Assembly (NCBI RefSeq): GCF_003334255.1
Contig: NZ_QOWU01000130.1
Length of the DNA: 2,825 nt
Reading direction: 5' to 3' (one strand)
DNA from: Escherichia coli
GTDB taxonomy: Bacteria; Pseudomonadota; Gammaproteobacteria; Enterobacterales; Enterobacteriaceae
The translations under genes were made by a program, and so were the position numbers. Below are positions 1 to 77 of the stretch, piece by piece. Position 1 is the stretch's first letter. Each line of letters opens with the position of its first letter. The notes below the pieces were generated by a model, which was not told the DNA's origin, did not search any database, and worked only from the letters and a program-made list of their open reading frames with translations.

Positions 1-77
1 GCTTTTCGCTCACCAGAAACACGCATGTCATGTTTAGCGCGGTGTGATTCTGCTGTCCAGTAGTCGGAGGGGGGGGA
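1..77. repeat. Terminal overlap copy 1 (identical to 2749-2825), indicating a circular molecule of ~2,748 bp
   Basis: Base-by-base comparison: 1-77 (gcttttcgctcaccagaaacacgc...gtcggaGGGGGGGGa) is identical to 2749-2825, and the window ends exactly where the copy ends. Confidence 0.9.

Follow-up and report, generated by a model that had tools for sequence, protein, structure and literature searches.

A G homopolymer of variable length in an accessory segment of a Col(MP18) rolling-circle plasmid of Escherichia coli is probably a neutral slippage hotspot

Introduction

Two inversely oriented oriTs on one plasmid are known from pBuzz (Moran & Hall 2019, Plasmid 101:10, PMID 30468749; cited in PMC7448864 and PMC11389934). 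The pBuzz type is a small E. coli plasmid in which rep is the sole gene and both inverted oriTs are of the I-complex type, features that recur in the plasmid analysed here. Mobilization of an oriT-only plasmid has been shown experimentally for pEC156, which has an R64-type oriT and is mobilized by R64 (PMC4743918). The oriTs of R64 and the IncI complex, as well as the bom site of ColE1, have a GGGTGTCGGGGCG-AGCCCTGACC box in common with the present plasmid; the I-complex oriT also has the inverted repeat and ACATCCTGTCCCG in common with it.

With respect to replication, the closest described relatives belong to the pC194/pUB110 family. Like its members, the present plasmid has a Rep_1 domain and an HPHFHTLL motif; upstream of rep it carries a conserved CTTGTAT-containing block, and its host is Gram-negative. 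The reference plasmid for Col(MP18) is pPM18 (NC_013652.1). Its Rep is 99.1% identical to the one encoded here and its backbone is 94% identical over positions 266-2716, with oriTs, a terminator-like hairpin and C and T tracts in common. In contrast, pPM18 lacks a 297-bp segment that carries a G8 homopolymer, has one 97-nt repeat, and has a T7 and a C4 tract.

Homopolymers of this kind are familiar from the simple-sequence contingency loci of Campylobacter, Neisseria and Haemophilus, which contain poly-G/C tracts. The tract described here resembles them as a G/C homopolymer of about 7-9 nt, with single-unit differences between close relatives and a slippage-type spectrum of changes. It differs from them in that neither an ORF nor a promoter is tied to it, the surrounding segment is non-coding and dispensable, and interrupted alleles persist. 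We know of no counterpart of the G tract in the origins of pC194/pUB110-family plasmids.

Here we analyse a window of 2,825 nt of E. coli DNA, the whole stretch of sequence under study. Its two-oriT architecture is already known from pBuzz, its G tract is of an ordinary, known kind, and the plasmid family is known as well. Compared with the pBuzz type, this plasmid has a size of 2748 bp and is of the Col(MP18) type; the 297-bp G-tract segment and the array of four hairpin units that it carries may be further differences. Its two oriTs match different helper groups, IncI-gamma/K1 and IncK2/Z.

Results and Discussion

A cryptic plasmid with a rolling-circle Rep

The first 77 nucleotides of the window recur without change as its last 77, an overlap of k-mer size. 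This identity shows that the window is a circle with a true size of 2748 bp (Table 1). The overlap stops one base past the G tract, at G8+A. As the G8 at the far end lies inside the duplicated end of the circle, it is not an independent occurrence. Close relatives are E. coli circles of 2738-2744 bp from several continents, with 99.2-99.8% identity, and the near-identical ones are typed as Col(MP18) and as 'mobilizable'. The plasmid is cryptic and mobilizable only through its oriTs.

Table 1. Features of the window and alleles of the G site. Coordinates are those of the window; a dot indicates that no strand was assigned.
Feature	Coordinates	Strand	Details
Terminal overlap of circular contig	1..77, copy 2749-2825	.	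exact identity
Accessory segment, first part	2717..2748	.	absent from pPM18
Accessory segment, second part	1..265	.	limited to 13 complete E. coli plasmids of small size and 11 contigs from metagenomes
G8 homopolymer	69..76	+	context TCGG-A-G8-A-GCGTGTTTC; 10 alleles in 25 related sequences
G8, second writing	2817..2824	+	inside terminal overlap; same tract as 69-76
Direct repeat copy A, ~97 nt	2621..2716	+	flanks segment; ~80% identical to copy B
Direct repeat copy B	266..363	+	sole copy in pPM18
Hairpin unit H1	2571..2629	.	arms 2571-2582 / 2618-2629, 12/12 complementary
Hairpin unit H2	2708..2772 (= 2708 to 24)	.	arms GCGCGTTTC 2708-2716 / GAAACACGC 2764-2772 (= 16-24)
Hairpin unit H3	76..136	.	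arms GAGCGTGTTTCT 76-87 / AGAAACACGCTC 125-136
Hairpin unit H4	355..420	.	arms GCGCGTTTCTG 355-365 / CAGAAACGCGC 410-420
oriT-L	457..533	+	GGGTGTCGGGGCG-AGCCCTGACCAGGTGG box; inverted repeat GTAATCGTAT/ATACGATTAC (486-495, 510-519)
Terminator-like hairpin CCCCCTGACACAGGGGG, then A + T9	626..652 (T9 644-652)	+	T7-T9 in relatives
GCACTTCGT tandem duplication, two copies	725..742	+	single copy in most relatives
C8 homopolymer	749..756	+	C6, C5 or C4 in 24 of 24 relatives; crossed by no conserved ORF
oriT-R	911..994	-	inverted relative to oriT-L; inverted repeat GGGAATGTC/GACATTCCC (928-936, 957-965)
Candidate double-strand origin, block TTCCTTGTATTTATACTTAAGGGATAA	1312..1338	+	conserved upstream of rep in 8 plasmids
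rep, 332 aa, only credible gene	1575..2573	+	Pfam Rep_1 PF01446; 'protein rep' in relatives
G-site allele A-G8-AG			window, L022
G-site allele A-G9 (A77 lost)			L001, L002
G-site allele A-G9-AG			L003, L004, L005, L028
G-site allele A-G7-AG			L006, L011, L012, L013, L018, L019
G-site allele A-G7-TG-AG			L007
G-site allele G6-TG-AG (A68 lost)			L008, L024
G-site allele G7			L009, L020
G-site allele G6			L010, L021, L026
G-site allele G3-TG-AG			L023, L027
G-site allele A-G9-CG-AG			L025

Residues 68-317 of Rep matched the Pfam family (E 9.1e-86), and an NCBIfam scan of the protein found no family. The Rep_1 domain identifies the replicon as a rolling-circle plasmid of the pC194/pUB110 kind. When the 330 nt upstream of rep were aligned from eight plasmids with Reps 49-99% identical, a single block, TTCCTTGTATTTATACTTAAGGGATAA, proved near-invariant. 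This block resembles the CTTG/ATA nick region of the pC194/pUB110 family, and it is likely to be the double-strand origin, a candidate assignment based on conservation. An inverted repeat follows it (1330-1346 / 1352-1368). Separately, an imperfect hairpin with 30-nt arms at 1124-1186 is a candidate single-strand origin, as are the hairpin units H1-H4 described below; the block that holds the 1124-1186 hairpin (653-1221) is common to many plasmids of ~2 kb, at 86-89% identity.

Three homopolymers and the segment around G8

A previous sequence-only reading had called attention to the G8 tract, together with T9 and C8, within DNA of roughly 50% GC. All three tracts were found as it described, no other run in the window reaches eight bases, and local GC spans 0.45-0.61, in line with the composition it gave. 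We compared the tracts with 5000 dinucleotide-preserving shuffles of the 2748-bp circle. A G run of at least 8 appeared in 4.9% of these, a C run of at least 8 in 0.8%, a T run of at least 9 in 7.3%, and three or more runs of at least 8 in 0.8%. Thus, the three tracts are unusual as a set, and G8 by itself is only mildly so.

Two direct repeats bracket the 297-bp accessory segment in which the G tract is found. This arrangement suggests that the segment was acquired by recombination or by aberrant rolling-circle termination. It is a rare element: of 72,556 plasmids in PLSDB 10 have it, as do 10 of 5426 complete genomes of E. coli. In nine of these genomes a single match spanned 80% or more of the query, and in the tenth (NR341) the segment is split over the record start. 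The 299-nt query found no match among phages or E. coli chromosomes. All occurrences are on small plasmids or contigs with one of two different Rep backbones. On the second backbone (L008-L010) the segment is 92-95% identical, with a Rep that is only 49% identical. Persistence on two Rep backbones hints at some usefulness of the whole segment. It is dispensable for replication, because pPM18 does without it.

Both ~97-nt repeat copies hold TTCTAACGTGATTTT. A third, decayed oriT was also considered at 137-265, where GGACAGGAAGGGG resembles a nick region, and was rejected when 74 of 300 shuffles scored as well.

Variation at the G site

For comparison between isolates we assembled 25 sequences, namely 14 complete plasmids (the window and 13 relatives) and 11 metagenome contigs retrieved by a pattern search that relied on the unique sequences flanking the G tract. 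The variable stretch was defined as the sequence between TCGG and CGTGTTTC. Ten alleles were present, with uninterrupted G runs of 5-9, interruptions by T or C, and loss of either flanking A. The T tract was T7, T8 or T9, and the C tract was C4-C6 in all 24 relatives and C8 in the window alone. The expectation that tract length differs between isolates was thereby borne out at each of the three sites, and the invariance named beforehand as its refutation was clearly not seen.

Among 12 near-identical full-length plasmids there were ~10 substitution sites and seven indel loci, and all seven of the latter are homopolymers or short tandem repeats. Besides the three long tracts (G, T and C), they comprise a run of A at 1275 (6 or 7 nt), GCGT at 497 (1 or 2 copies), GCACTTCGT at 725-742 (1 or 2 copies), and CTCAGACGCG at 261-280 (2 or 3 copies). 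The window and L003-L005 are separated by no substitutions and by three changes in repeat length: the window has G8 instead of G9, C8 instead of C6, and differs in the 9-nt duplication. Confinement of indels to repeats is the pattern predicted by replication slippage, from which we infer slippage as the probable mechanism of tract-length change.

Our data suggest that G8 is probably a neutral slippage hotspot in non-coding DNA, located in a dispensable accessory segment of a rolling-circle plasmid. The G run would gain and lose single Gs by slipped-strand mutation and would merge with neighbouring Gs once a flanking A is lost, while a point change from G to T or C would interrupt it now and then. 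C8 and T9, the T-run of the terminator-like hairpin, would be tracts of the same kind. The length changes are most likely neutral, judging from the absence of detectable features, since the segment is not needed for replication and no allele disturbs the arm core of the adjoining hairpin unit H3; every allele leaves GCGTGTTTC intact. Tract length may still affect this conserved unit, and the purine block could, as the earlier reading proposed, bear on local structure. Gene function is unaffected, as no gene is involved at the G tract.

A slippage hotspot also implies that the exact length in any one assembly is not to be trusted. For this plasmid family, the assembled lengths of the G, T and C runs are unreliable as single-base truth. 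At the same time, the tracts are lineage-linked, fast-evolving markers, which could separate otherwise identical plasmids such as the window and L003-L005.

Where the G run came from is a separate matter, and one proposed origin is compatible with neutral slippage. We regard as doubtful the derivation of the run from a G-rich box, GAGGGTGTCGGGGCG, that opens oriT/bom-like sequence, and as tentative the accompanying scenario in which a 'repeat + hairpin + pre-oriT' module was duplicated and point change and slippage later turned the box in one copy into pure G. When 2621-150 and 266-540 were aligned globally, they proved collinear through GTAGTCGGAGGGGGGGGAGCGT versus GTTGTCGAGGGTGTCGGGGCGT, and the TG-retaining alleles of L023 and L027 (GGGGGTGAGCG) look intermediate. 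However, local similarity past position ~39 is by itself non-significant, being reached by 1416 of 2000 shuffles for the window allele and by 150 of 2000 for the L023 allele.

Inherited variation or miscalled lengths

It is unlikely that the length differences are mostly artefacts of sequencing or assembly, with tracts that are stable in vivo and lengths miscalled in the window. Such an account would fit the restriction of C8 to the window, and the 77-nt overlap ending one base past G8 would be consistent with a branch of the assembly graph at the tract. Homopolymers are miscalled in long-read assemblies, and some of the comparison sequences are possibly of this type. L008, L009 and L010 are very similar elsewhere, yet unlike at the G site. 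Coverage is as low as 1.4-3x in metagenome contigs L022, L024 and L025, and some of the allele diversity could therefore stem from error.

Recurrence of the same alleles in independent isolates and metagenomes argues against this account. AG9AG was found in three isolates and in metagenome contig L028, and AG7AG in four isolates (Vietnam, Japan) and in L018 and L019. G7 (L009, L020), G6 (L010, L021, L026) and G6TGAG (L008, L024) likewise recur across datasets. Furthermore, G alleles co-occur with lineage-specific SNPs and with the lengths of the T and C tracts. Because alleles recur independently and track lineages, most of the variation is inherited rather than random miscalling. Homopolymer miscalls do not typically yield interrupted alleles (G7TG, G3TG, G9CG) or remove a flanking A. 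The window allele itself, AG8AG, was independently reported by the short-read contig L022, another SPAdes-style circular contig of the same plasmid, whose break lies at 1092-1146 and not at the G tract.

Neutral slippage, with inherited alleles, is thus the reading we retain. The tract lengths in the window may nonetheless include miscalls, and the advice to treat exact lengths with caution was justified, above all for C8. As C8 was found in no other sequence, it is the least trustworthy of the calls.

Function tests on the tracts

It is very unlikely that the tract is a contingency (phase-variable) switch whose length, by way of a small ORF's reading frame, promoter spacing or the geometry of the adjacent hairpin unit, would tune a plasmid function such as priming, copy number or transfer. 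In length and polymorphism (a homopolymer of ~7 nt or more, with many alleles at one site) the G tract resembles a contingency locus. Its immediate neighbour is a 12-bp inverted repeat with perfect conservation, which belongs to a set of four paralogous units, and the segment is conserved on two Rep backbones. However, the tract lies neither within a conserved ORF nor between promoter elements. The variable stretch measures 6, 7, 10, 11, 12 or 14 nt, lengths that represent each of the three reading frames, and the sole ORF across the tract encodes 46 aa on the minus strand. A consensus scan returned no sigma-70-like promoter in the entire window, and an Rfam scan of the whole window matched no RNA family at E up to 1. 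Interrupted or shortened alleles (G5 with TG) persist in nature, and pPM18, with the same Rep, lacks the whole segment.

G-quadruplex motifs (four G runs of at least 3, with loops of 1-7 nt) were absent from both strands. The T9 follows a 7-pair stem, with 6 of 7 pairs G-C, and a single A; a GC-rich stem-loop followed by a T run is the form of an intrinsic terminator, which is the predicted identity of this element.

Other proposals for the tracts were considered and rejected. A coding role for the C tract was discarded because ORFs across 516-1195, whose translations are rich in Arg, Cys and Pro, shift in frame and length from one relative to another. Pairing between the distant G8 and C8 was dismissed as their lengths do not co-vary (G7-9 occurs with C6, G8-9 with C5). 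A dG:dC-tailing cloning artefact, considered for G and C runs on one strand 680 nt apart, was rejected on the absence of PstI remnants and the presence of the tracts in natural isolates from several continents.

A hairpin array beside the tract

The region around the G tract is distinguished by the motif GAAACRCGC, of which the circle holds nine distinct copies (0.15 expected). Eight of the nine lie within ~600 bp, from 2570, at the rep stop codon, through position 420. The copies form four inverted pairs (H1 to H4), with 27-40 nt between 17-nt arm windows. The left arm of H1 overlaps the stop codon of rep, and H2 has one mismatch in the window and is perfect in L010. In H3 the arms are 12/12 complementary and 37 nt apart, and G8 abuts the 5' arm.

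The two arms of a unit covary: GCGTG/CACGC in H3 corresponds to GCGCG/CGCGC in H1 and H4, and the Yersinia pestis plasmid pPCP1 has TTTCCGG/CCGGAAA where L035 and L010 have TTTCTGG/CCAGAAA. This covariation favours base pairing over protein sites that act independently, the paired form being a hairpin or a cruciform. ColpVC-type relatives, plasmids with Reps 72-87% identical, and ColE1 itself all lack the array. It is present in ColE1-type pPCP1 (L034, units at 2240-2460), between IS100 and rop, and units also lie at 1207-1280 of L035. The array therefore does not travel with Rep, being absent at 72-87% Rep identity and present at 49% and in pPCP1. A search for a Xer (cer-type) site in the repeat region gave a best candidate with 7 mismatches in 22 positions, which was rejected, and none of the ARG-box candidates in this region was convincing.

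We consider it highly improbable that the G tract serves as an adjustable 5' flank of H3, as one of four paralogous GCGYGTTTC-N27-40-GAAACRCGC units, with a length that tunes the module. If it did, the hairpin units would represent an undescribed cis-acting module, for example a single-stranded DNA priming or structural signal, common to Col(MP18) rolling-circle plasmids and ColE1-type plasmids such as pPCP1, and the tract would be a non-coding contingency locus on a one-gene plasmid. As a by-product of this analysis, the hairpin array is of more interest than the G tract.

Membership of the tract in an iteron-rich replication origin, which the density of GAAACRCGC copies in the surrounding 600 bp gives an iteron-like look, is scarcely credible: Rep is a Rep_1 rolling-circle initiator, conservation of non-coding DNA across all Rep relatives is limited to one block, upstream of rep, the array does not follow Rep, and pPM18 replicates without the G8 segment. 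The placement of G8 in a 'candidate origin region' by the earlier reading is accordingly not upheld, as the conserved block is ~1.2 kb away and a plasmid with a 99% identical Rep is missing the segment altogether. Sequence conservation places the G tract outside the replication origin. The repeat-rich G8 region is instead an accessory, partly duplicated module beside the oriTs.

Two inverted oriTs

The long inverted repeat of the window consists of two inversely oriented oriTs, each with the GGGTGTCGGGGCG-AGCCCTGACCAGGTGG box and ACATCCTG/TCCCG. This is the pBuzz-like arrangement of two inverted I-complex oriTs, formed here by oriT-L on the plus strand and oriT-R on the minus strand. The nick-like sequence of oriT-L (ACATCCTG/TCCCG) lies at 520-532, and that of oriT-R (CACATCCTG/TCCCG, minus strand) at 915-928. 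oriT-L is a ~92% match to intergenic DNA beside mobA(nikA) and the relaxase gene of IncI-gamma/K1 plasmids. oriT-R matches intergenic DNA upstream of mobA and the relaxase gene of IncK2/Z plasmids at 96-98%. The inverted-repeat arms of the two oriTs differ, and each oriT would transfer the opposite strand. C8 and T9 sit between the oriTs, and the G tract lies outside both. One strain, S19-651, holds both a relative of this plasmid, pS19_651-h (L009), and an IncK2/Z plasmid, pS19_651-b (L015).

In the second backbone (L008, L009, L010, L020 and L021, at the equivalent of 487-518), both inverted-repeat arms of oriT-L are replaced in a compensatory manner, with seven changes per arm. By its sequence, this replacement looks like a swap of relaxosome specificity.

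Two metagenome contigs of 10-11 kb (L018, 2978-5803; L028, 1221-4049) contain one full plasmid unit with the 911-997 oriT at both ends. On their left flank lies an ORF of 112 aa, identical to the gene that precedes the IncK2/Z oriT, and neither nikA nor a relaxase gene is present on the right flank of the unit. These contigs are either an assembly join through the common oriT or a real oriT-mediated cointegrate.

Between the oriTs, TAAGTGCGC (718-726) adjoins the GCACTTCGT tandem duplication, 23 nt upstream of C8. We take it to be equivalent to the core of an RSF1010-type (MOBQ) nick sequence, a weak 9-mer match with a ~2% probability by chance.

The stretch at 457-828, comprising oriT-L, the terminator-like hairpin and the C tract, is also found at ~84% identity inside large plasmids. 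In L017 the match is accompanied only by an ISKpn26 transposase. In L037 (NZ_CP038858.1, 3001-3366) it lies within a mosaic rich in IS26 and ISKpn26, beside a rep pseudogene. A derivation of 457-828 from a leading region was rejected on account of this setting in the large plasmid examined, and the L037 stretch looks like a captured small-plasmid fragment.
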